DNA of 59,399 nucleotides, counting the filler, from Bipalium vagum (taxonomy: Eukaryota), in assembly GCA_037834085.1 (NCBI GenBank). It is 3 parts of 3 records of this genome, joined end to end, with 100 filler letters (N's around TTAATTAATTAA, not from the genome) between each part and the next. Parts side by side here need not be neighbours in the genome. Positions count along the whole stretch, not along the records: positions 38,843 to 59,399 come from JBBMKC010250152.1; 2 more parts are not named here. One strand, 5' to 3'. A model generated the notes under the pieces. That model searched no databases and had not been told where the DNA came from. It was given only the letters and a program-made list of their open reading frames with translations. Positions 12,500 to 57,989 of the stretch are shown here, in pieces. How positions within the stretch are numbered: the first letter of the stretch is position 1; every line of letters starts with the position of its first letter. Made by a program: the position numbers and the translations under genes.

Positions 12500-14660
12500 G
12501 TATTGTGTATAGAAACTAGTTCGGTTCTAAATTTCTAAGAGGCAAATCGTCCGTATATTGAACGTTTATCTAGAACTCATTCATTTTCGCGGCCACGATC
12601 TCCAAGTTCCTTCTGGCTTGCCTAACAATTTCAGTATCCTGATGCTTGTGATCATGTACACTGGCATGTAGACCTACTTTGTAACCCAAGACGATTTCAA
12701 AATGAGAAAACTTTGTAAATAAGTATTAATACTGAATTCGATTTTTGGTATTTGTGTCAGTTTTATTTTTCACATCTTTCCTTTAACCATTTAGTGATCA
12801 TGTGTCAAATCATCCTTATTATTCTTTCTACTAATTCATTTAGTTGATGTTAATAGGGTGAACTGAACTCAAGCTTAATTTTCAACTCCTTCCATTTTTG
12901 CTATAACCATGAACTTCTCTCTTCTCTCTATCTGTCAGAATACTTTTTAATCTACCGAATTTGTAAATTCACTGATTCATCACGATCTTGAAGATGGACT
13001 TATCATCCAGTTTCGTCAATGCACTAACCAGTTTACTGAATAGATCGATAATTAAAATTAATTATTTATAACACGCACCAGCCTTATCCATATAGACCAC
13101 TTGAACTACATCTGTCCCATTAAATGTGAAATTCTTCTGGAAATAAGAATCTCTTTTGTGCTTGTTTGATCTATTTTTCGCTTTGCATAGATAATACAAT
13201 TTTTCAAGCATATATTGATCGATCTTCACATCAACAGCCAGAAATATAGGTACTTTAAATAATAAATATTTTCTTAATTCCGAAATGATACAAATCCGAG
13301 TAATTTTCTTTCAAAATTTCTCCGACAGATTCTTCTGGGATTATAATCAGATCTCATTCATCTTTTTTAACGCATCCACCACGGTTAGATCATTTCTCCA
13401 TTGATAAAATTTAATTTTTTGAACTTTTTCCTGTATGTCACCCCCCCTCTCTCTCTTTCCTGGGTACATTATATTCAAGCTCGTGTTTAATAAGTGTCTG
13501 GATCCAAAGGTAATAACTGCTTCTCTCCCTTTTCAGGGATTTTACTCAAAATACCCCTAACCACACTAAAACTAGCGTCTGTGTCCAGGACAAAAAACGA
13601 ACTTCTCGGAAAAGCCAAAATTGGAACCTGGTATAATCTAACCTTCAATTCTTAAAATCTCTTCCTCCATTAGTCAATTGATTGTAGTTTTTCCTTTCCA
13701 TCAGAAATTCCGGTGTACAGTGGGACCGCCATATCCGATAAATTATTTTCGATAAAATATTTATAATAATTTGTTAACCCCAGAAAAGATATCAATTGAG
13801 ACAAAGAACCAGAAGGTTCGACCTTAAATATCTCTTCAATCTTTTTTTCGTTGGTTAGAATTCCGTCGACGCTAACCATGTGACTCAGGAGATCAATTGA
13901 TAATGAAATTTACATTTGGCTGGATTCAACTTCAAACCCTGAAATTACTCCAGCTGCAATAAGCTGCGATACTATTTCATCAATTTTTGCTTCTAAATAC
14001 AACGGTTGTAACTGTATTCTATTAAACATCCGTATCTTCTTTACACATCGATTTCTATTCAGAGTTATTGGCTAGACCCCACACATGAAATGATTTTTAT
14101 TTGTCCGTATCATCTTAAAACTTTCACCTTGATATATTCCATCAATGTCTTCATGAATACACAATACTGGCTTAAGCTCTATCTTCAGACCCTTTTCCAA
14201 AAGTAGGCAGACCGAAAACGATGTCCGTACTTCCTACATATGCGGCATAAATTCTTAAATATTCTCAACTACCGCAAAATAAACATTAACCTGTACGAAG
14301 TTGTTCGTCTCTTGGTGTTCCTAAACCCATATATTTATTATAGAGCCGTCTAGTAATTTTTTCATGAAAATGCTAGAGGGTCTCTCTTCGACCAACAGAA
14401 TCGGTTTCATGTATACTTTGTCTCTACATCACGGACATTATGATGGTAGTATCATGAGATTCTACCATGATCATCCCACCATGCTGATTAGAAATAAGTC
14501 ATATATGCTAAGCCATTGGTCGATTTCTTTTATCAAATGCTCTGATTGCGACGAGCGCTAATTTAGGGATCTGAAAATTTAATATCTTCTGCGCCTGATT
14601 TGGTAAAGCACCCAGAAGCTTTTTCTTTCTTGTCTTCTCGTAACGACATGAATTTTTTCG
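12500..14660 (-). mobile_element. degenerate Ty3/Gypsy LTR retrotransposon (gag-pol remnant)
   Basis: FNPAKCKF, HMVSVDGI, FLGLTNYY (RT C-terminus); PILAFP...FVLDTDAS (RNase H); many stops and frameshifts. Confidence 0.8.
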
Positions 14661-15633
14661 GTATAATTGCCGCCTTCTTTTAAATTAATTATTTAAACTG
14701 ATTCAAGTTTTAAAAAGTTTGTATTTAAACTAAAGTATTATATAATCTCTAACTAATAGACCACAGTAGATTCTTTAGTATGATATGAGAAATTATTCCT
14801 GAGACAAGAAAATATATTATTTAATAATATCTACAAAACAGATTCTTTATATACACACATCGTCTATTGCTATACCAAAAAACCATCAGTGTAACATAGA
14901 TTTTAAGAACATTTATAGAACATTTTAATTCGATAATATAAAAAATTATTTTTAATTAAATTTAATTATGACATTCCAATAGATATAATACTGCCAATGT
15001 ACCTTGTCTGAAATTTTACTAAAAAATCCGAATTTATCCATGTTTCACTTCACTTTACTGAATAATTTTTTAAGCCATGTTTGCAATTTGGGGCAATGAA
15101 AGTTTGATATTTTGAATCGAAAGTTTACCATTTATTTGTTATTCTAATATTTGATATCAATAAAAGAGTAAAATAATTGATCGTTGTTTTAATTATTATA
15201 ACATTATTTAAGAACTGAGCATAATTATTGGGTAACATTATTAATTTATATGAATTAAACTTTCTACGGAAATTTAGGAAAATTTATTAAATTAAATTAG
15301 ATATTGTATAATATTAAATTATTATAATTATTATATAAAGTTATAATAAATTAAAGTTAAATAATAAATTATTATGAAGTTATATATGATATTTATCTAA
15401 ATTTATTAAAATAAGGTTATAAGAAATAGAATTTGTTTTTTCTATTAGGATTTTTACTTTTAAAAGTGCGCTTTATGAAAGAAAATATTTATTTATTTAT
15501 ATTTATATTTTTCATTTTTACATGAAATAAAAAAACATTTTAATGGTAAACAAAATGAATATAAATTCATTTCCACTTATTTTCATTTTACTATAATCTA
15601 ATAAATTAAATTATTATTATATAATTATTATAT

Positions 15634-15733
15634 NNNNNNNNNNNNNNNNNNNNNNNNNNNNNNNNNNNNNNNNNNNNTTAATTAATTAANNNNNNNNNNN
15701 NNNNNNNNNNNNNNNNNNNNNNNNNNNNNNNNN
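15634..15733. other. assembly gap with artificial six-frame-stop linker
   Basis: 44 N + TTAATTAATTAA + 44 N. Confidence 0.95.
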
Positions 15734-38742: not shown

Positions 38743-38842
38743 NNNNNNNNNNNNNNNNNNNNNNNNNNNNNNNNNNNNNNNNNNNNTTAATTAATTAANN
38801 NNNNNNNNNNNNNNNNNNNNNNNNNNNNNNNNNNNNNNNNNN
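38743..38842. other. assembly gap with artificial linker
   Basis: 44 N + TTAATTAATTAA + 44 N. Confidence 0.95.
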
Positions 38843-44130: not shown

Positions 44131-44799
44131 TGTCTTAATTTTGCCTTCAAAATAATAGAAAAATGCTCAATTTTGTTGAGAGTAGTAAATGAGTCAAAAC
44201 TGGTGAACTTAACAGTATTAGAAGAAGTCACACCGGATTTAGTCGGCGGATAAAATCTCCAAATTGCTTCGACTTTTGATTCTTATTTACAAATGACTAC
44301 TCAAGAATATAACTAACCCTATGAGAAATTGGTATGAGGAAAAGTACACCTGCAGGGTTCGCTGGCTGACCTTTGGTACCTTATTCTTAGATTATCCTTA
44401 AAAGGCTTAAAAGATTTAGATTTTGGTTCAGGTGGTATCTGGATTGGCTCTGTATCAGTGATGTATGGTACAATGAGAGTTGATCTCTGTGATCACTATT
44501 TTACCCTCGTCCGCCACCTTGACCTCTCGTTTCTTCTCACCTTTTCCCTCTTATTTTTAGTTTTCGTGCTAGGCAAGATCTCCGTATTCTCTCTTTGCTC
44601 ATATCAGATTCGCAAGGACGCCTTAACGATTTGCCGAATTCTTGGTAGTTGCAATGGTCTTTTCTGGTATTGGCTACACTGCCTTTGATTTGTGCTTCGT
44701 TTTGGTCAGTCCCTGTTTCTTCGGTTCCTGATTCTTCTTCTTCTGCTAATTTAATTATTTAAATAAATAATTAAAAATATTCCCCAGGTTTGATTAGCT

Positions 44800-45250
44800 T
44801 CCTCATACGGACAATTCGTGATCTTATTGACGCGACACTCAAGCAAAGGAAGTAAACAGGTTGGACAGAGATTCTACAAGACGTTGAGTTTGTGATCAAC
44901 GCCCAAGTTTAAAATTCTACGTGGATAAGCCCGTAGAAAATTGATTTTGGCAGGAAAATCTTCAGGGAAAGGTGAATTTCAAGGATCGATTTGGAGATCA
45001 GAATGAGGAAAATAGAAACGAAACAAGATGCCCCCCCAATCTCAACGGCTAGAATCCAATTTTTTGTGGAAGACAATGTCTTGATAAAGCGGAGAACAGG
45101 AACAAGGAACAAGATCGATATATTGGACCATACAAAGTGATCAAGAAAAGTCAAGACAGAAGATATATTCATGGGATCCAGGAGATGTATAGATTTTAAA
45201 AAGTCTATGTACTTTGTTAGGAAGAAAATATGCCACAAAGCAGAACCCAA
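44800..45250 (+). mobile_element. Gypsy/Ginger-type integrase C-terminal remnant (copy 1)
   Basis: RTIRDLIDATLKQRK*TGWTEILQDVEFVINA...FGRK and GPYKVIKK (GPY/F motif). Confidence 0.75.
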
Positions 45251-45619
45251 AGAACAATGCGCTGACGAACCGATCCGTCCATGACGCAGATCAGAAATTT
45301 GAAAGGGAAACGGAACCGGATCAATTATTTTTAATTTTAATCTAAATTTATGAAGATAAATTTATTTAATAAATTTAAAACGGTTATGAATAAAATTTAT
45401 TTCAATCTCCATAGCAGCGCGACCCCTGGTCACAAATATTTTATATTGTGAAAGTAAATTTATAAACAATTTATTATAATAGAATTATTTCCGGTCGAAA
45501 GATTTCGGTCGCTCTCATGATGCACATGTAAACCTTTCGGGTCGAAGGGTTCTTTCAGATAACCAATATGTATCAATTAACATTAAAAATAGAATCGATA
45601 AATCTTCATAATCGATGAA

Positions 45620-45692
<73 letters not shown>

Positions 45693-46147
45693 TCGGAATG
45701 GTCAAAGGTTGAAATCGTTGAAGTTTTTTAATGAAAGATCGCAAAGTTAAATTATCCAAAGTATCAAAAAGGTTTAAAATCATTAACATCAATAAAAGGG
45801 TAAAAGAATTCACTGATTCTGTGTTGTGTTTGTTTGAATGATCGTCATTTGAATGGCAAATCTGGAAAATAACATAACAATGCCTTCATTCTATTAGTGG
45901 TCTTTGGCTGTCACTTTTTGTCTTCGGCGCTCCTATGGAAAAGAAAAGGATAAAAAATGACGTTGGACAGAAATCAATTGGAGATAAGAAATAACCTTTC
46001 TTCATCGTTTGCATCAAATATTTCCGAAGAATTCGTCGACTTCTCCAAAGGTTTGTGTGAGTCTTTCATTTCAATGTATACATGGATGACGTTACCATTC
46101 TCCTTTTCCAAGAAATTATTTGCAAGATCTGATTTATTATAATTTAT

Positions 46148-46178
<31 letters not shown>

Positions 46179-47298
46179 TTATTATTAACTCAGATAAAAC
46201 TCACTAACTTTTCTCCGTTTTTTCCAATTCTGCCCACGGGTTAGAGTCTTTCGAAGCTTGCATTGATTTCGGTAGTCTATCGTTGAAAGGGAGGTCTGTC
46301 GGTTCTCCTCCCTTTCCTTCTGCCAAGCCAGGATATTCCCCATATTCAAAAGCTGACAGAAAAACAAAATTTAAATATCGACCTAATTTTTCGTTCCAAA
46401 GAAACAAATTACCGCGTCCGTCTCCCTCAGGTATTCCTCTTTTTGCTTTTCGTATCGCCATCCTGTACGCGAGAGCACTGACCAATACGCAACCTTAATC
46501 GGTCAACCAATCAGATCAAAGAATAATACAAACAAAATCAACGATACCCAAAAACACAATCGGGATCAAAATCCAAACAGAATCGACGATACCCAATGAC
46601 CGAATATCCTTTGACCTCGGCATGGAAGACTCATTGTCATCGCGACACTCCTCCTCGCTGATCTCATTCAATCTTAGCTCCATCTTAACGACGGTCACGT
46701 TGTCCTTCACACCTCGGTTGTTGTACACCAAGTGGGCCTTGACGAATCCGTCGAACTGCTTCGTTGTGGGTCTGATTTGACCTCCACAAGTCGTCGACAG
46801 CTGAATCGAGAGAAACATCGTCATAAACGAATATCGATATAAAGATTCACATTTCTTTCCTGGTCCCACGAATTGATTTTGATGTCTATTTCGAAAAACG
46901 GACATCGTCGAGTCGATATCTTCTGTTCCATCAACGAAATCCGTTCGATGGACAACAGCAAACGAGAATTGTTAGTTACAGTGCTGAAACTCAAAAGGCA
47001 GTCCAAAGGTTCCGTCAACGGTGGCAGCAGGATGATCTTAAAAAGGCATTTGGAGTGTAGCTCAACTCTGTCTTTGCAATTGTTCTTTGTGATTTCTAAA
47101 AGTGAATTCAAAAGGACTGAAGACTCTAAACTTCCCCCAACCTACAGCCACCAGTGCCCCAAACAGAAGAGAAAATAAAATGTAACTCATTTTAATGATC
47201 ATTTTTAAGAACCGCCTTTGTACAAAATAATAAATTAAATTATTTAAGAACCGCTCTACGCGAATAATTTTAAATTGGATTATTTAAACAAAACCCGA
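44820..47298. repeat. ~2.5-kb duplicated segment, copy 1 (direct repeat with 55479-57909)
   Basis: Shared start GATCTTATTGACGCGACA and end GGATTATTTAAACAAAACCCGA; collinear throughout. Confidence 0.95.
45911..47190 (-). CDS. Unknown type I single-pass membrane protein, paralog A (7 exons, ~308 aa)
   Basis: Exons 47190-47142, 47095-46851, 46800-46548, 46493-46413, 46352-46209, 46128-45996, 45932-45911, all GT-AG and phase-compatible. Signal peptide MSYILFSLLFGALVAV, 6-Cys ectodomain, TM VWILIPIVFLGCVLVSALAY followed by RMAIRKAKR. Confidence 0.75.
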
Positions 47299-47443
47299 TT
47301 TTAAAAATTTTAAAAATTATTTCATTCGCAGTTTTTAACTTTGCTAAGTTTGTTCAGAAATTAAAATTGAAACATTCCATATTTCCGACCATTCTCTGAT
47401 AAAAAGGTATGAGAACAGCACTTGAGAAACAAACTTCAAATTA

Positions 47444-49056
47444 GAGTCAAATCTCGTTACTATGCCACTCCGCTATTATGCCACTTTTCTACGTTCCCGA
47501 CAAAATTTACTACAAAATAAATTTATTATGCCACCCCTAACCCTCGCTACTATGCCACCATTAAATAATGATGATGTTATGTAATTTTTTAATTTAAATT
47601 ATATTTTACTACTAAAAATGTGCATATCAGTCATTGCTTTGTCTAATTATGCATTTTTCAAAAACCATTCAAAAATAAACTCCGCAGTTAACTGATTAAT
47701 TCAATTATTTTTATTCATTTTTTTAAAATTTAATTCATTTTTTTCAATTTTTTTTAAATTCAGCCCATCATGTCAACTGAAAAGCGCAAACGAATTGAAT
47801 TTTCGTTGAAGCAAAAGAAGGAAATTATTGATGCTGCGAAGAAGGAGCCGAATACGTCCAAGCTAGCCAGAGAGATGAACAAGGAGTTGAAGTCAAGAGA
47901 ACTACAGTAAAAGACATTCTCAACAAGAAGGATTGTATTGAGTCTGCCGTAAATGCTGGAGTTCCATCGAAACGAGTAAAGCTGACACAGGGTCACAACC
48001 CAAATCTTGACAAAGGGGTATTCATGTGGTTGAAGCAGACAAGAGGAGCAAATCTGCCTGTCAGCGGAGATCTTATCAAGGAAAAGGCTGTGAAAATGGC
48101 CGAGTTGATGCACATCCAAATTTTTATGGCAAGTGACGGTTGACTAGATAACTTTAAGAAGAGCTACGGCATTGTGTTTAAGACAGTACAGGGCGAAGTT
48201 GGAGCAGTAAATTCACAATCTTTTCTTGAGTGGCAACAACAGGTTCTCCAGTCTTTACTCATAAAGTAAAGCGCAAACGACGTCTTCAACCTAGACGAGA
48301 CAAGATATCTCTGGCAGCTTCTTCCAAATAAGACCATCTCTTTCAGGGATTTTTAAGAAATTGAGAGGGAATTATAGAGATTCTCAAACGTAACTACAAA
48401 AAGCTTTTGCTGTGTCGTCGACTTGAAGCAATGGATGAAGGAAAGGAATTTAAGTTTACATTGCTTGATGCTCTATATGCCATTCGACGTGCTTGGGAGC
48501 AAGTCACCGAATTGGCAATTAGGAACTGTTTTGCAAAGGCCAAGTTCTGTAAAGCAGAAATCCAAACTGAGCCAGAGGATACTGAGCTGCTCGAGATTTG
48601 GGAGTCTCTGCCGGCAGAAAACGAAGAAATTGAGCTGTTGGATTTTCTTAATGCTGACGAGCGCCTGGCGACTGTTGGATCATTTACGTTAGAAGAGATT
48701 GCGGAGGAGGTGCTGTGCAGTGAGGAACGGGTGGAAGACAAAGATAATAAAGTAATAACTGTCGAGGAGGAAGTTATTCCTTTCGGGGAAGCCCAGCGCG
48801 CATGGATTATTGTTCGAAAGTTTATAAAATAGAACAGCGGTAAAACTGATGTTATGTTAGGTTGCGATAGGTTAAATAACGAGATAAATAGAATCCGCCT
48901 AAAGAAAATGCGTCAGCCGACGATTTTTGAAGTCTTTGGATTAGCTGATATTAACTTTAAAAAATAAAGTATTTTTTTACAAACCCTCGCAACTATGCCA
49001 CTCTATGCTACTTTTTTCTTGGTCCCGACGGGTGGCATAGTAACGAGATATTACTG
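47444..49056 (+). mobile_element. pogo/Tigger (CENP-B-type) DNA transposon, internally deleted
   Basis: TA-flanked TIRs (c/g)AGT..ATCTCGTTACTATGCCAC with subterminal copies; ORF from 47770 MSTEKRKRIEFSLKQKKEII...FMASDG*LDNFK...VFNLDET...AWEQVTELAIRNCF. Confidence 0.92.
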
Positions 49057-49394
49057 TATTATTAAAAATCAGGCGATTATATTTAATTGCATAAATATGT
49101 TGGGTTAGCCAAGGACACATTCCTGTAAACCCTTGTAAAAGTTTATCTTAGAGTCCGCAATATGGTCGAGAATAGTGATTATTATTACACATCTGTAACA
49201 AATTTAATTTTTCTTTTCCCTCATAATTTTTTAACTTTATTCAGTTACGCATGTTATAATAGGAAGGGTGACAAAGTTTAACAGAGATCGGTCGAACCGT
49301 TTTAGACTTACATCGCTTTTAACAAAATATAAAAATGTCACAAAACTAGTAATACTTTATTACGAAACAGTATATTAACCAAAGAAAGAGGTGT

Positions 49395-49755: not shown

Positions 49756-50131
49756 TTTTAAGTCATAAAAATATCAAAATATCACTAAAAAAAAATAATT
49801 GTACTGGGACAAATATATATATTTTGCTATTGTTTTTTCTAGTTTTTATTTTTTAAAAATATTTACAGGGACCAATATATATTTTTTTTAGTTCAAAAAA
49901 TCACTAAAAATTCACTGAAAAATGGTTGAAAATGGTATTGCGAAATTTCTGATAAATTTACTAATAAAAAAATAAAAGTCATTATGAAGATACAGAAATA
50001 CATGAAAAAAATATTCAACGATTTCAACGAAAAAACAACGACTTAAAAAATAAAGCAACGACTGAAAAACAGCGATTAAAAATAACGTCATCAACGAAAA
50101 AAAATAGCGTCCAGTTTTTTTTCCCAAAGTT

Positions 50132-51295
50132 GGTGGTCACATTCAATCAGCTATAACAAATAATAAATTTTTAAGCAAATTTTCCACAGGAAAATACCTA
50201 GGTGAATTACATTTAAAATCTTTGACTCCTTTATATAAAACAAATCCAGTTTCAAATTTTTGTGGATCTGGAACTCATGTTGATTAAGTCAAGTTCAAAA
50301 TCAAACTCCAAAAGAAAAATTTGAAAGAGCAATAGTAAAATTAATTATGAAGAGCCAGGTCGCTTTAGGATTAGGATTAGGAAGATCTTCAAAGTTGCTC
50401 GCAAATGAAACATTATTTAAAAACTCAAAACTTTTAAATCCAGAAAAATCAAAAATACTTGCAAATGAGCTGCATAAAGAATTTAGAAAACAAAAACTTT
50501 TTAAAAGGTAAAGTTAATAACAAAGATGATATTTGGTCTGCAGATTTAACATTTGTCCCAGGAGAAAGAGATTATAAAATAATTCTAACATTTATTGATT
50601 TATATACTCATTTTGCTGTTCCTTTAAAAACTTAAACAGGTCAAAAAATGATAGATACATTTGATAAAATATTTGAAGATTCTAATAGAGTTCCAGAAAA
50701 ATTTTGGGTTAATAAAGGTTCTGAATTTTACAATAAAACTTTTGAAGGTTTTTGTGATGATAGTGAAGTAGAATTCTATTCAACAGAGAATGAAGGAAAA
50801 GAAGTTGCCATTGAAAGATTTAATAAAACTCTAAAAAATTTAATGTTTCAAAAATTTACGGAACAGGAAACAGAAAATGGTTTCATATTTTACCAAATTT
50901 AATTAATTTCTATAACATTAATATTCATAGTTCATTCGGTATTTCGCCAAAAGAAGCAAGTAAAGATCCAGCACAGCTGTCAAGGTCTTCGACTAGTCCA
51001 ACGAAGTTGGCTTAGCCTACGGCTAGTCCAAAAAAGTTAAAGATTCAAAAAGATGACAACGAAAATCTTAATCCTGTAATTGCTAAACCAAAATACCATA
51101 TTGGAGATCATGTGAGAATTTTTAAATATATAAGAATAAATTCGAAAAAGGATATACAGCTAGATGAACAACTGATTTTTTTATTATAAATGAAATTTAT
51201 TTCACAAATCCAATTGTTTACGGTATTATTGATTTAAATGTGGGAAAATATTGGCTAGATGTTACGATTTTGAGCTTCACAGAAGCACTCTATGA
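50132..51295 (+). pseudogene. Polinton PLA2X (parvovirus-like PLA2) fused to rve integrase
   Basis: GELHL...NFCGSGTH and EK..AIVKLIMKSQVALGLG read in frame into LANELHKEFRK; then IWSADL, FWVNKGSEFYN, IERFNKTLK, KYHIGDHVRI, FEKGYT. Confidence 0.9.
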
Positions 51296-51796
51296 GATGT
51301 AATCGGAGACAAACCTCTACTTTAAAATTTAAATATTTTATTTTTTAAAAATTATTAATTACATCATCATGGTAGACGTTCATTATCAAATTTTATTTCT
51401 CAATGTCTTTCATTTCCTGGCCAGCCCGTTTGGCAGTGTGCATGGTACCACGGCTGCGTTGTAGTTGTCAGATATTCGAATCTTCACTTGTCTTCTATTT
51501 CCTTCTCTTTCTTAAAAGACTATTTAAGCCCGCCGGTTACATCAGGGAGAGGCAATTTCGCATTTTGGTTTCCAGTTCGGTCTTGAATAAAGGAAAGTGA
51601 AAAGGGAAGAGAAGTTAAAAAAAAGTTTTTTAATAAAAAAAAAGAAATGATAGCACTGAAAAGGATGGTGGTTGGAACTGCTTGATGGAGAAAAGGAGAT
51701 GTAAGAGTTGATAAAGACAGACCACCATCCAAGCCATCAAAGAGTTTTGTCATTTTTATAAATATTAATGAAAAAAAGTAAATTTATTTTTAAAAA

Positions 51797-52140
51797 ATGA
51801 ATAAGAAAATCACAAATGAAAAATTCAAAAATATTATCGAAATAGGCAAACCTAAATATATAACATTTAATGGAGAAAAATACTACGTCTCCAAGTGGAA
51901 AATCTCAGCGAAGCTGGCAAGACCGAGGTCGAATTAAAATCTAAAGAGGAACAAAAATCTGGAGCTGGACTTTTCTTCAATCCTTGTTTTGGTAAAATAT
52001 TAAGAGATTCAATTTTAAATAGTTCTGAGGGAAAATGTTTAAAGAGATTAAAAGAAATAAAAGCAAAAGCTTTGTAAAAATAAATTAAAATAACTAAACA
52101 AGGACCTGGCCTATTTTTTGATCCTTACAAGAAAAGTAAA
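51797..52140 (+). pseudogene. Polinton small basic protein with GxGLF repeats (putative core protein)
   Basis: A-rich ATG context; SGAGLFFNP and QGPGLFFDPYKK motifs. Confidence 0.5.
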
Positions 52141-52275
52141 TAAACACACATAAATGCTAGTGCCGAAGAGTCTTTTATTCAATTCAAAATTTTCCAACAA
52201 TATTTTTTTCCCATTAAAATTTTTTCTCATATAAAAATTTCTAACAATTTTTTTTCCAATTTTATTTTTAAAAAA

Positions 52276-52727
52276 ATGGCAGAAAGAATAGTGGAATTCT
52301 TTTGTAAATATGGTATAAATACAACAATAACATTTGATTTAATTAATATTGCAACAGATTTAGATATGCCTCTATAAGTTTTGATGAAAGATGACGAAAT
52401 TACATTAAAACATATTACAATGATATTCCACGTAATTCTGATATTCCTTTAATAATTGAATATGAAAATTTGAAAGAAGAAGGAATCCATTGGATTGGAT
52501 ATTAAAATTGTGCTTATTTTAACTCTTATGGTTTACCTCCTTCTTCAAGTATGTTACTTGAAAGTACAGAAGTATATGAACGAACTATAATATTCAATAA
52601 ATTAAATTTTCAAAGTGAAATGGATTTGTTGTATAGTGGACAATTAACTTTATATGTTATACAAGATGGGAAATTTATAGAAATTTTAGAAGAGTTACAA
52701 AATGTTATCTTAGAAAAATTAAAATAA
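52276..52727 (+). pseudogene. adenain-like cysteine protease, copy 1
   Basis: GIHWIGY*NCAYFNSYGLPP...FQSEMDLLYSG (Asp site reads Asn, Cys site reads Ser). Confidence 0.75.
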
Positions 52728-52775
52728 TTTAAAATTGAAAGAATTAAAATTTTAAAAATTAAATTTTATAAAAAA

Positions 52776-53200
52776 ATGAGTCGATTTAAGATTGTAAAAA
52801 CAAATTCATTGCTATAGTTTTTATGTAAACATGGAATTAACACAACATCAAATTTAGATTTAATTGATATTACTGAAGACTTAAAATTACGAGACGGAGT
52901 CTCTCATATCAAAGGTATGCCATTAAAATAATATGGCATGAACTATCTGAAAAAAAGATTTAAATCTGAAGTTTCATTAATTATTAAATATCAAAATACA
53001 AATCAAAAAGAAATTCATTAGGTTGGGTATTACGCTGGATACTATTTTGATTCTTATAGTTTACCACCATTTGAAGATTTAGAAAAACATGTTAAGGAGT
53101 ACAACAGATTTGATTTTCAATCTGAAACAGATTTAGAGTATTGTGAACGAATATTTTTATATGTTTTATATCAACTTTTTCAAGGAAAAAATTGAGGAAA
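52776..53200 (+). pseudogene. adenain-like cysteine protease, copy 2
   Basis: EIH*VGYYAGYYFDSYSLPP...YNRFDFQSETDLEYC (His, Asp, Gln and Cys positions retained). Confidence 0.8.
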
Positions 53201-54229
53201 TTTTAGCAGAGTTGGAATATGTTATTTTTGGGAAGTTGAAACTAAATGAGGGATTATCAGTCTTTGAGAACAAGACCCAGAGCTCCCTTTTATTACTTTT
53301 CCACTTACAAAATTCATTTCCATTTTTAATAAGAAAAAAATGGCTTCAAAAATAGGACTAAAAACAAAATATTTTTCAACAATAAAACTAAACAAAAAAA
53401 TACCAAAAATGTAAAATAAAGGAAACATAAAAACACGTAAACTATAAAATTTAAAAATGATAAAAATGATCCATTTTGCATAAACATGAAAACGAAAAAA
53501 CATACGTATATTTAAAAGTATGCATGAAATAAGTATGAATAAAAAGTACTAATGAAATTAGTACTAGTACTAATAAAGATACTAATAGTATTAATTAAAG
53601 TACTAATATTACTAATTTTAGTTGTACTGAAAAAATTAGTTTTAATAAAAGTACTAATGAAAAAAGAAAAGGAAATGTTCTTAATTAAAAAAGGAGGTGA
53701 TATTTAACAAGCAATAACAAATAATACATTTTAAAACAAATCTACGACAGGTAAATATTCATGAGAATTTCATTTAAAATCTTAAAACCCTTTTCATAAA
53801 ACAAGATGTTCTCCTAAAAATCTTATAAACCTATTTACTCTAACTATTTCCGTTTTTTTACTAATTTTTATAAATAAAAAATTCTTAAAAAATAAAAATT
53901 TGAAAATTTTTTATCACAATATTTTTCATGAGAAATTCTCGCTGCAACAGTTCTAAATTTTCTTCCCGAAAATCGTATTGTTTTTCACGTAGTTGATTAT
54001 CATTTACTTTTTATGTAATTAAATGTGACTTTTGATGTGATCGCACTGCGTCAGTCATCTTCAATCATTGTAGGGCATCGAAATGACAATCCAGAACTGT
54101 GAATGATTGAAAAAGAAAGAGCACGTTCTTCTGCACTTTAACTATCTTCATAAGATTCTCTGTTTTGCGTGATTCTTCCAGCACAAAGGATTTTATGATA
54201 CCTTGACATTTACAGGGTTATTCAGTCTT

Positions 54230-54570: not shown

Positions 54571-56352
54571 TGGATATAGCCATTTTTAAACGAAACGGAA
54601 TTGAAAATATTTTGACCGACATCGTTTAAACTGCATTTTCCGTTGCTGTGTTATGCTTGGGTCTAATCCCAGCAGAAACAATTTCCTTGCATTGAGTAAA
54701 TATTCTTCAAGTATTTATATAACCTTTGTACCTCCTGCTAGAGTTTGATCAATACATAACATCCTTTTAGATATTTCCACATTATTCGTTACTTCTACTA
54801 AATGGTTTTAAATATTCTTCAACATCTTTTTATCTTTGATTTTTTTATTATTGTTAAATAGGGTTATAATAAATAATAATTAATATTATTAACAGAATTA
54901 ATTAAACTTTCAACATTAGAAATTGACATTATACATTATAATTCAAAATTAGATAAATTATATATTCTAATCACCATACAAGTTTGCGTATTTTACTTAA
55001 AATTATTTTATTTATATTTATTGTTTTCTTAGTCTCAATTATGTTTATTATTTTTCTGAAATCTTTATTTCCTCTCCCTTTCCACAGACGCCATATTTTA
55101 AATTTTCAATCATTTCATCTTCCAATTTTGTTTCAAAATATAAAAATTAATAATCGATTTTGCAATATCAATATTTCCAATAAACCGTTTTGAAATAAAT
55201 TTTAATGCTTCGTTTTTTCTAAATCCAGATCATAATGGATTATTTTTTATAAGATTTATAACACGTTTTTCTCCCAAAGTTATTTGATCGTTATTGACAA
55301 TTGGAATTAATTTCCCTCACTCATTTTTAAAGAGAAAAATAAATGTTTTTCTCAACATTATCTCGATCAAACCAATCTTCATTTTTTTTCAATTACATTT
55401 CTACTTCTGATTTCTGAGAAAATTCTGACCTTTGTTGATTTTTAGGATTTTGGAATCTTATTTTTTTTATATTTTTAGGATCTTATTGACGCGACAATCA
55501 AGCAAAGGAAGTAAACAGGTTGGACAGAGATTCTACAAGACGTTGAGTTTGTGATCAGCGCCCAGGTTCAAAAGTCTACGAGGATAAAGTCGTAGGAAAT
55601 TTTTTTTGGCAGGAAAATCTTCAGGGAAAGGTGAATTTCAAGGATCGATTTGGATATCAGAATGAGGAAAATAGAAACGAAACAAGATGCCCCCCAATCT
55701 CAACGGTTAGAATCCAATTTGTTGTGGAAGACAATGTCTTGATAAAGCGGAGAACAGAAACAAGGAACAAGATCGATATATTGGACCATACAAAGTGATC
55801 AAGAAAAGTCATGACAGAAGATATATTCATGGGATCCAGGAGATGTATAGAATAAAAAAAAGTCTATGTACTTTGTTAGGAAGAAAATATGCCACAAAGC
55901 AGAACCCAAAGAACAATGAGATCGGTCCATAAAACTTTCGTGAGCTGACGAACCGATCCGTCCATGACGCAGATCAGAAATGTGAAAGGGAAACGGAACC
56001 GGATCAATTATTTTTAATTTTAATCTAAATTTATGAAGATAAATTTATTTAATAAATTTAAAACGGTTATGAATAAAATCTATTTCAATCTCCATAGCAG
56101 CGCGACCCCTGGTCACAAATATTTTAAATTCTGAAAGTAAATTTATAAACAATTAATTATAATAGAATTATTTCCGGTCGAAAGATTTCGGTCGCTCTCA
56201 CGATGCACATGGAAGCCTTGTAGGTCGAAGGGTTCTTCCAGATAACCAATTTATATCAATTACCATTAAAAATAGAATCCATAAATCTTCACAATCGATG
56301 AAAATAATAATAAATAATAATAATAATTATTAATTAATTAATAATAATAATT

Positions 56353-56372
56353 GTAGCTCAGCGGTCAGAGCA
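56353..56372 (+). other. tRNA D-arm/A-box-like fragment (possible SINE head relic)
   Basis: GTAGCTCAGCGGTCAGAGCA with GCTC/GAGC stem; no B-box or acceptor stem. Confidence 0.4.
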
Positions 56373-56609
56373 GTCCATTTTCATTGTATTCTGCTTTTAT
56401 CCTTTTCTCTTTCTCTTTTTATGTTTGGGTTGTTTTTTGAAAATAAAAACTGAAAGAAATCGTTGAAGTTGTTTTGATGAAAGGTCACGAAGTATCAAAA
56501 AGATTTAAAATCAAAAATATTAATAAAAAATAAAGGATCCCTTGATTCTGTGTTATGTATGGTTGAATGATGGTGACATGTAAATCGGGAAAATAACGTA
56601 ACAATGTCT

Positions 56610-56863
56610 TCATATTAGTGGTCTTTGGCTGTCAGGTATGGTCAGTGGCGGTCCTTTGGAAAAGAAAAGGATAAAAATGCCATTCAACAAAAATCAATTG
56701 GAGATCGGAACTAACTCTTTTTTTCTTCGTTTTCATCATATACTTCTGAAGATTTCGACGACTTCTCCAAACTTTTGTGTGAGTCTTTCATTTCACTGTG
56801 GACAGGGATAACGTTACCATTCTCTTTTTCCAAGACATTCTTTGCAAGATCTGATTAATTATA

Positions 56864-56915
<52 letters not shown>

Positions 56916-57842
56916 ATAAATTGCTAACCTTTCTCCAATTCCGTCCACAAGACGGTTAAAGTTTGGAGTGATTTTTGTAATTCATCGTTGGAATATTGTC
57001 CTTCTTCTTCCTCGGCACGACTGATCCCTCTTGTTTCTGTTGCATTTTTATTCCTCCTCATTTTCATTACACATTCCCTCTTCACGTACCCGACAGCACA
57101 ACCCAATACGAAACCTTTATCGGTGGACCAATCAGATCAAAGAATAAAACCACACGATATCGACGATACCCAATATGAAAATGGGGACCCAAATCCAAAC
57201 AGAATTGACGATATCCAATGACCGAACATCCTTTGGCATAATCCGAACAGTTGATCTCTGCAGTGAAGACTCGTCATCATCGCGACACTCCTCCTCGCTG
57301 ATCTCGTTCAGTCTCAGCTCCATCCTGACGACAGTGTCCTTGTCCTTCAGACCACGGTTGTTGTAGACCAAGTGAGCCTTGACGAATCCGTCGAAGTGCT
57401 TCATTGAGGGTTTGAGATAACCACCACAAATCATTGATAGCTGAATCGATGGAGACATCGTCATAAACAATCATCGTTATTATCGAGACAAAGTAGATTA
57501 ACTTTTCTGTGTCGGTCCAACAAATTGGTTTTGATGTTTATTTCGAATAACGGACATCGTCGAGTCCATATATCCTGTTTCATCAATGTAATCTGTTCGC
57601 TGGTTAACAGCAAGCGAGAATTTTCAGTTACAGTGCTGAAATTCAAAAAGCAATCCAAAGGTTCCGTCAACGGAGGCAACAGGATGATCTTAAAAAGACA
57701 TTTGGAGTGGAGCTTGACTTGGTCTTTGCAATTGTTTTTTGTGATCTCTAAATGTAACTTTAAAAAGACTAAAAACTTTAAACGTCCCTCTACCTAAAGC
57801 CACCAGTGCCCCGAGCAGAAGAGAAATGAGAAAATAATTCAT
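56610..57842 (-). CDS. Unknown type I single-pass membrane protein, paralog B (6 exons, ~309 aa)
   Basis: Exons 57842-57794, 57747-57503, 57440-57170, 57114-56929, 56850-56716, 56653-56610. Signal peptide MNYFLISLLLGALVAL; TM VWIWVPIFILGFVLGCAVGYV followed by KR; intron positions shared with paralog A. Confidence 0.75.
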
Positions 57843-57989
57843 TTTAAAGAGCATTTAAAAACCGCTCTTCGTAAACAATGTTAAATTGGATTATTTAAAC
57901 AAAACCCGAGGGCCATTAAAAATAAATGGCGGATTAAAAATAGAAATTAATCTATTAAAATATAGATTAAATATATATATAATTGATTT

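Follow-up and report, generated by a model that had tools for sequence, protein, structure and literature searches.

Two intact genes for predicted type I membrane proteins of a likely multi-copy, lineage-specific family in Bipalium vagum

The window, the whole stretch of 59,399 nucleotides analysed here from the Bipalium vagum assembly GCA_037834085.1, consists of three parts separated at 15634-15733 and 38743-38842 by technical filler (44 N, a 12-nt palindromic linker and 44 N) that does not belong to the genome. Within the part taken from JBBMKC010250152.1 (38,843 to 59,399), seven minus-strand exons at 47190-45911 join into an open frame of 308 aa, hereafter copy A, through six GT-AG introns of 46, 50, 54, 60, 80 and 63 nt. 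The initial annotation had proposed this joining of minus-strand reading frames by small introns, and all six sizes are confirmed. The introns of 44 and 53 nt that it cited from the host EGFR gene are found at 8381-8338 and 4347-4295; the host genome is AT-rich and its introns are tiny.

Exon 1 of copy A (47142..47190; 49 nt, as in the second copy described below) carries the ATG and a predicted signal peptide (aa 1-16). Exon 2 (46851..47095) encodes the N-terminal half of the ectodomain, with Cys 23, 33, 49 and 81, and is separated by a phase-0 intron of 50 nt (46801..46850; 62 nt in copy B) from exon 3 (46548..46800), which encodes the C-terminal half (Cys 103 and 150), a stalk and the first half of the transmembrane segment (TM). 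The second half of the TM and a basic stop-transfer sequence are encoded by exon 4 (46413..46493). The tail is encoded by exon 5 (46209..46352), which contains FEYGEYPGL, exon 6 (45996..46128), which contains VYIEM, and exon 7 (45911..45932), which includes the TGA stop. The N-terminus is hydrophobic (Kyte-Doolittle 1.91 over aa 1-19), the ectodomain of 156 aa bears four sequons (58, 98, 132 and 154), and the TM at approximately 173-192 is followed by RMAIRKAKR and a tail of 116 aa. Sequence and hydropathy therefore agree with the earlier description of a signal peptide, a six-Cys ectodomain of about 155 aa with sequons, and a single TM with a basic stop-transfer. The features of a type I topology (N-terminal signal peptide, one TM and a basic inner side) are present in both copies, and the signal peptide and TM would direct the proteins to the cell surface.

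Self-comparison revealed that the block 44820-47247 recurs at 55479-57898. The recurring block contains an intact paralogue, copy B, about 10.7 kb from copy A (56613..57842, minus strand), with six exons (57842-57794, 57747-57503, 57440-57170, 57114-56929, 56850-56716 and 56653-56613) and a product of 309 aa. The earlier view of a single hidden gene was thus correct in that the gene is intact, but it missed the second intact copy and the multi-copy nature of the gene, and the statement that everything around it is pseudogenised does not hold, since copy B sits at 57842-56613. Five of the six introns of copy A (1, 2, 3, 5 and 6) have a counterpart at the same place in copy B. The sole gap in the alignment of exons 1-3 is an in-frame insertion of 18 nt, and gaps of 1 nt and 12 nt fall in introns. 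Intron 4 of copy A (60 nt) contains no in-frame stop and is absent from copy B, which makes it the least secure intron of the model. Both genes are presumably expressed and spliced as modelled.

Over the ectodomain (aa 17-156), the two copies are 76% identical, with pS 0.286, pN 0.115 and dN/dS 0.35 (Fisher p=2e-4), and mismatches are distributed 17/15/31 over the three codon positions (p=0.027). The signal is clearest in the exon 3 part (aa 99-156; dN/dS 0.24, p=4e-4), whereas exon 2 taken alone gives a borderline value (dN/dS 0.47, p=0.07-0.08). Judged by these substitution patterns, the ectodomain is under purifying selection between copies A and B. The TM (dN/dS 1.1) gives no signal of constraint, and exon 6 (dN/dS approximately 0.8-0.91) does not differ from 1. 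The region of exons 4-5, where copy B has strongly diverged, is barely alignable, and copy B stays open and in phase there; both tails, though heavily altered, are open over about 110-116 aa. FEYGEYPGL is absent from copy B, where VYIEM is replaced by VHSEM; two YxxPhi motifs are present in the tail of copy A and none in that of copy B, and a search of both tails for ITAM, ITIM and NPxY motifs gave none. Likewise, none of the four ectodomain sequons of copy A is kept in copy B, which has one of its own. Neither the Tyr motifs nor these sequons are therefore family features. Both Tyr motifs highlighted previously are real in copy A, but the emphasis on signalling is not sustained, since copy B has neither and neither tail contains an ITAM or ITIM.

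Remote relatives were sought with exon 2 by HMMER over 1.84 billion representatives (E<=0.001). Two of the five matches were repeats and were dropped, three were true relatives, and a profile search brought three more, giving six in total (P0002, P0003, P0005 and P0009-P0011). All are unnamed singletons from ENA or Logan contigs of 586-1530 nt and look like gene calls on genomic fragments. They are 29-36% identical to exon 2, and the exon 2 residues F18, P24, P25, C32, L34, F36 and C64 are kept in 8/8 rows of the alignment. P0002 covers both halves of the ectodomain, matching exon 3 with 38% identity over 45 aa. The core Cys are also kept: Cys 23 in 7/7 covering rows, Cys 49 and 81 in 8/8, and Cys 103 in 3/3. 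In four of the six relatives (P0002, P0009, P0010 and P0011), exactly 14 codons separate the Val at the site of intron 2 from a Gln or a stop. From these protein sequences, the stretch would fit the read-through of a 42-nt phase-0 intron of the form GT...CAG/TAG, which provides independent support for intron 2; an equivalent of this intron in relatives of about 35% identity further indicates that the family is old. A Pfam scan of the exon frames of both copies and of the six relatives assigned no family, and a PDB sequence search gave no match. The initial description of an unrecognised, lineage-specific surface protein is supported by these results, as the only relatives are unnamed.

One public sequencing run contains the locus. 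When its contigs were aligned to the 3 kb at 44700-47700 at 80% likeness, 438 contigs were recovered, of which 146 were 90-95% alike and 149 less than 90% alike (295 below 95%); these contig counts are not copy numbers, as flanking transposons contribute to them and alleles or pooled animals may inflate them. Among the 40 of 305 rows listed, the number of contigs with another letter reached 18 at one place in exon 3; it was 6-18 at the listed places in exons 1-3 beyond aa 2, apart from the two closest to the stalk (4 contigs), and 3-5 at three places in exons 5-6. The many divergent contigs point to a multigene family.

By eye, the ectodomain resembles a CUB domain, a likeness that was then tested. 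According to PMC9083331, CUB domains are beta-sandwiches of 100-110 residues that contain four conserved Cys. The ectodomain unit, which comprises about 115-120 aa and includes four kept Cys, agrees with this in size and Cys content. It may fold as a beta-sandwich held by putative disulphides 23-49 and 81-103, with a third putative bond between 33 and 150. The core Cys are spaced 25/31/21 in both copies; in P0002, once its intron is removed, the spacing is 25/27/19. The fourth (103) is followed by Gly. The CUB-like spacing pattern was matched by 78 of 100000 shuffles; this pattern was set post hoc, drew in part on bacterial CUB domains and was broadened to fit.

No profile comparison favoured a CUB assignment. 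The exon frames of copies A and B and the six relatives (P0002, P0003, P0005, P0009-P0011) did not reach the cut-off of the Pfam CUB profile (PF00431), and a home-made profile of 56 bacterial CUB domains recognised neither the spliced ectodomains of copies A and B nor P0002; copy A scored -1.3 bits against it, with 377 of 1000 shuffles as high, and copy B was unscored. The hhalign probability against CUB was 0.4%, which is not significant. A global profile alignment placed the Cys81-Cys103 region gap-free on the CUB core, with scores as high in 14/120 column shuffles and 58/120 block shuffles. In these comparisons the CUB reference was bacterial only, distant and mostly Cys-poor, and the family profile was shallow (Neff 2). 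AlphaFold2 gave a pLDDT of 38.7 for exon 2 alone and of 37.9 for P0002, for which seven strands and one helix were assigned; at this confidence, searches with the P0002 model are not meaningful. On balance, a CUB ancestry of the ectodomain is slightly favoured, and the protein is not filed as a member of the CUB family. As a separate observation, within one bacterial order 124 of the 201 genomes searched have bona fide CUB domains, often in tandem, with Pfam E-values down to 1e-25 (L075-L104).

The reading that we prefer, and to which we give about even chances, is that copies A and B are type I glycoproteins of a likely multi-copy, lineage-specific invertebrate family, with one disulphide-held, possibly much-changed CUB ectodomain that likely binds an outside partner in recognition or adhesion. 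Each copy would yield one such glycoprotein, whose single ectodomain would bind the partner, and the family would follow a birth-and-death course in which duplication and conversion drive its growth and turnover. With the ectodomain kept and the tail, Tyr motifs and glycan sites free to change, the copies could share a common binding scaffold and differ in intracellular output and glycan cover. The negative CUB profile tests, the complete turnover of glycan sites (four in copy A, none kept in copy B) and the lack of a signalling motif common to both tails would also fit a multi-copy type I family whose ectodomain adopts a different beta fold or a novel one, and whose role is that of a variable surface antigen or coat protein, not that of a receptor. 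This is rather unlikely, since selection on the ectodomain between the two copies is purifying and not diversifying, the Cys spacing and the Cys-Gly at 103 fit a CUB domain, and both tails, however much they have changed, have stayed open at about 110-116 aa.

Mobile elements surround both genes. A broken 3' fragment of a Gypsy-type integrase with its downstream DNA (44820..45620, plus strand) lies tail-to-tail with copy A, with a (TAA)n run between them, and the same fragment lies beside copy B (55479..56303, plus strand), with a weak SH3_Tf2-1 match (E 0.01). The integrase is truncated and frameshifted, and its spacing to the two copies is the same. The integrase blocks are 95% identical, whereas the exons, introns and 3' UTR of the genes are only 76-86% identical; the block has therefore not diverged on one clock. 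The DNA upstream differs between the copies, being AT-rich DNA for copy B and a pogo-type element for copy A. The latter, of pogo/Tc5 type (47443-49060, plus strand), lies about 250 nt upstream of the copy A ATG; its ends are inverted, and its HTH_Tnp_Tc5 and DDE_1 frames are broken. A dead Gypsy-type remnant occupies approximately 42.9-44.8 kb on the minus strand. Between the copies, at approximately 49900-53600 on the plus strand, broken integrase frames with weak rve matches and protease-like frames are found in a remnant that we take to be a Maverick/Polinton. Only beside copy B does a short tRNA-5'-like stretch (56350-56375), presumably A-box-like, adjoin the (TAA)n run; ARAGORN found no tRNA in the window. 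Self-BLAST gave four repeat pairs of at least 60 nt, none of them an LTR pair around the gene.

Base composition is also unusual. Ectodomain GC3 is 0.61 compared with 0.30 in the host EGFR exons (p=1e-9). The GC content of introns 1-3 is 0.31-0.39, compared with 0.17-0.18 in two EGFR introns; GC drops toward the tail (GC3 0.39; intron 5 GC 0.11). The raised GC, together with the tail-to-tail arrangement of both copies with the same integrase fragment at equal spacing and the higher identity of that block (95% against 76-86%), would be expected if the gene were an antisense-strand passenger of a Gypsy- or Ginger-type element copied by transposition, in which case antisense introns would survive retrotransposition. 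We regard this as distinctly improbable, because the integrase is truncated and frameshifted, with the (TAA)n run between it and the gene, neither copy is flanked by an LTR pair and the upstream DNA differs. Moreover, the identity gap and the raised GC are both accounted for, with no need for an intact element, if the locus was duplicated locally and the paralogues then underwent conversion. A more elaborate proposal is that of an undescribed invertebrate recognition system in which a single, highly derived CUB-like unit underlies tens of receptors whose tails and glycan sites can be exchanged (a paired-receptor logic without ITAM or ITIM), the genes having been dispersed in the genome as intron-keeping antisense retroelement cargo; this is very improbable.

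The initial annotation had also considered an env-like gene. The env gene of LTR retroelements follows pol on the same strand, inside the LTR pair, and encodes a large fusogen ectodomain with an internal fusion peptide. Here, the gene lies on the strand opposite to the integrase fragment, no LTR pair flanks it and its small spliceosomal introns are common to remote relatives, which oppose an origin as env cargo. The ectodomain of 156 aa is short for a fusogen, and the highest internal 19-aa hydropathy sampled is 1.25. The sole match to a viral contig covers 26 aa in a stop-ridden frame.

Intron 3 begins with a stretch similar to the end of the preceding exon (46516-46590 and 57132-57210, minus strand). 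Read-through of this intron ends in VWILIPIVFLGIVDFVCIIL in copy A and in VWIWVPIFILGIVDIVWFYSLI in copy B, a hydrophobic C-terminus followed by a stop, and may represent a tail-less or GPI-type isoform. That the main product ends in this way, tail-less or GPI-anchored, with exons 4-7 outside the main coding path, would agree with a tail dN/dS near 1. It is nevertheless highly improbable: intron 3 differs by 1 nt in length between the copies and both, when spliced, give a clean TM of 20 aa followed by a basic cluster, and the 186-nt exon 4 of copy B is open in the model frame only and differs by 39 nt, a multiple of three, from exons 4 and 5 of copy A combined.

When GT-AG introns of 40-100 nt were freely chosen, a through frame was obtained in 27 of 60 Markov shuffles and in 5 of 60 other ATG windows. 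As through frames are so frequent in shuffles, stitching is in itself weak evidence, and the copy A model is carried by the paralogue, the dN/dS and the remote relatives. An artefact of free intron picking, or a silent pseudogene, agrees with these shuffles and with a frame that does not force intron 4, but is scarcely credible given two intact copies that differ at about 15-20% of DNA positions, with a dN/dS of 0.35, and an intron 2 whose position and phase are kept in relatives of about 35% identity.

The preferred reading of a type I glycoprotein family with a possibly CUB-derived ectodomain has parallels in several described systems. The CUB type I proteins NETO1/2, C. elegans SOL-2 and LEV-10, and Drosophila Neto, as outlined in PMC9083331, share with copies A and B the type I topology and a unit of about 115-120 aa whose four kept Cys have CUB-like spacing. 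In contrast to those proteins, the present ones have one unit, no LDLa or second CUB, a fifth and a sixth Cys, and no Pfam or profile match, and they are multi-copy and fast-evolving, whereas those presented in PMC9083331 are conserved orthologues. C. elegans RBT-1, in the account of PMC7228132, is a divergent CUB-related surface unit that binds an outside protein, as we infer for the present ectodomain; RBT-1 is GPI-anchored, whereas our model has a TM and a tail and no match to the Pfam CUB-like family.

The Hydractinia Alr genes are clustered single-pass paralogues with tails more divergent than their ectodomains and a fold missed by sequence searches, according to PMC9546547, and the clustering, the divergent tails and the fold unplaced by sequence are as in copies A and B. 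Alr proteins differ in having tandem Ig-like and Fn3-like domains, several with ITAMs or ITIMs (PMC9546547), whereas here one Cys-rich unit is spread over two exons, the ectodomain of 156 aa is too short for such an array and there is no ITAM or ITIM. A further trait of the Alr receptors is allele-specific homophilic binding. The Biomphalaria PTC2/GRC clusters, as characterised in PMC7494358, likewise encode lineage-restricted single-pass proteins with no known domain, of 166-530 codons compared with about 308 here; they are hyperpolymorphic, with paralogues less than 50% identical, whereas the present ectodomains are 76% identical and under purifying selection. By analogy with the Hydractinia and Biomphalaria clusters, the family could have an immune or self-recognition role. 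The gene cluster is of a known kind and the family within it is new and well supported, with its fold and function predicted. Lineage-specific single-pass clusters control self-recognition in Hydractinia and, in snails, resistance to parasites. In an animal group that has been sparsely sampled, an old unnamed family of this type is a concrete candidate for a function in immunity, in adhesion or at the host interface. If the ectodomain is CUB-derived, it would extend the CUB fold past the limit of profile detection.

Elsewhere in the window, the identification of the host EGFR is sound (Pfam GF_recep_IV, 1.6e-11; ErbB4, 2e-18). One of its exons had no close relative in a search of 5.8 billion proteins, so the host lineage seems poorly sampled. 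The EGFR exons extend over approximately 2400-8550 on the minus strand and encode several Cys-rich repeats. At approximately 12500-14700 on the minus strand lies a further broken element of Gypsy type, whose frames were labelled by eye as RT, RNase H and integrase-like.
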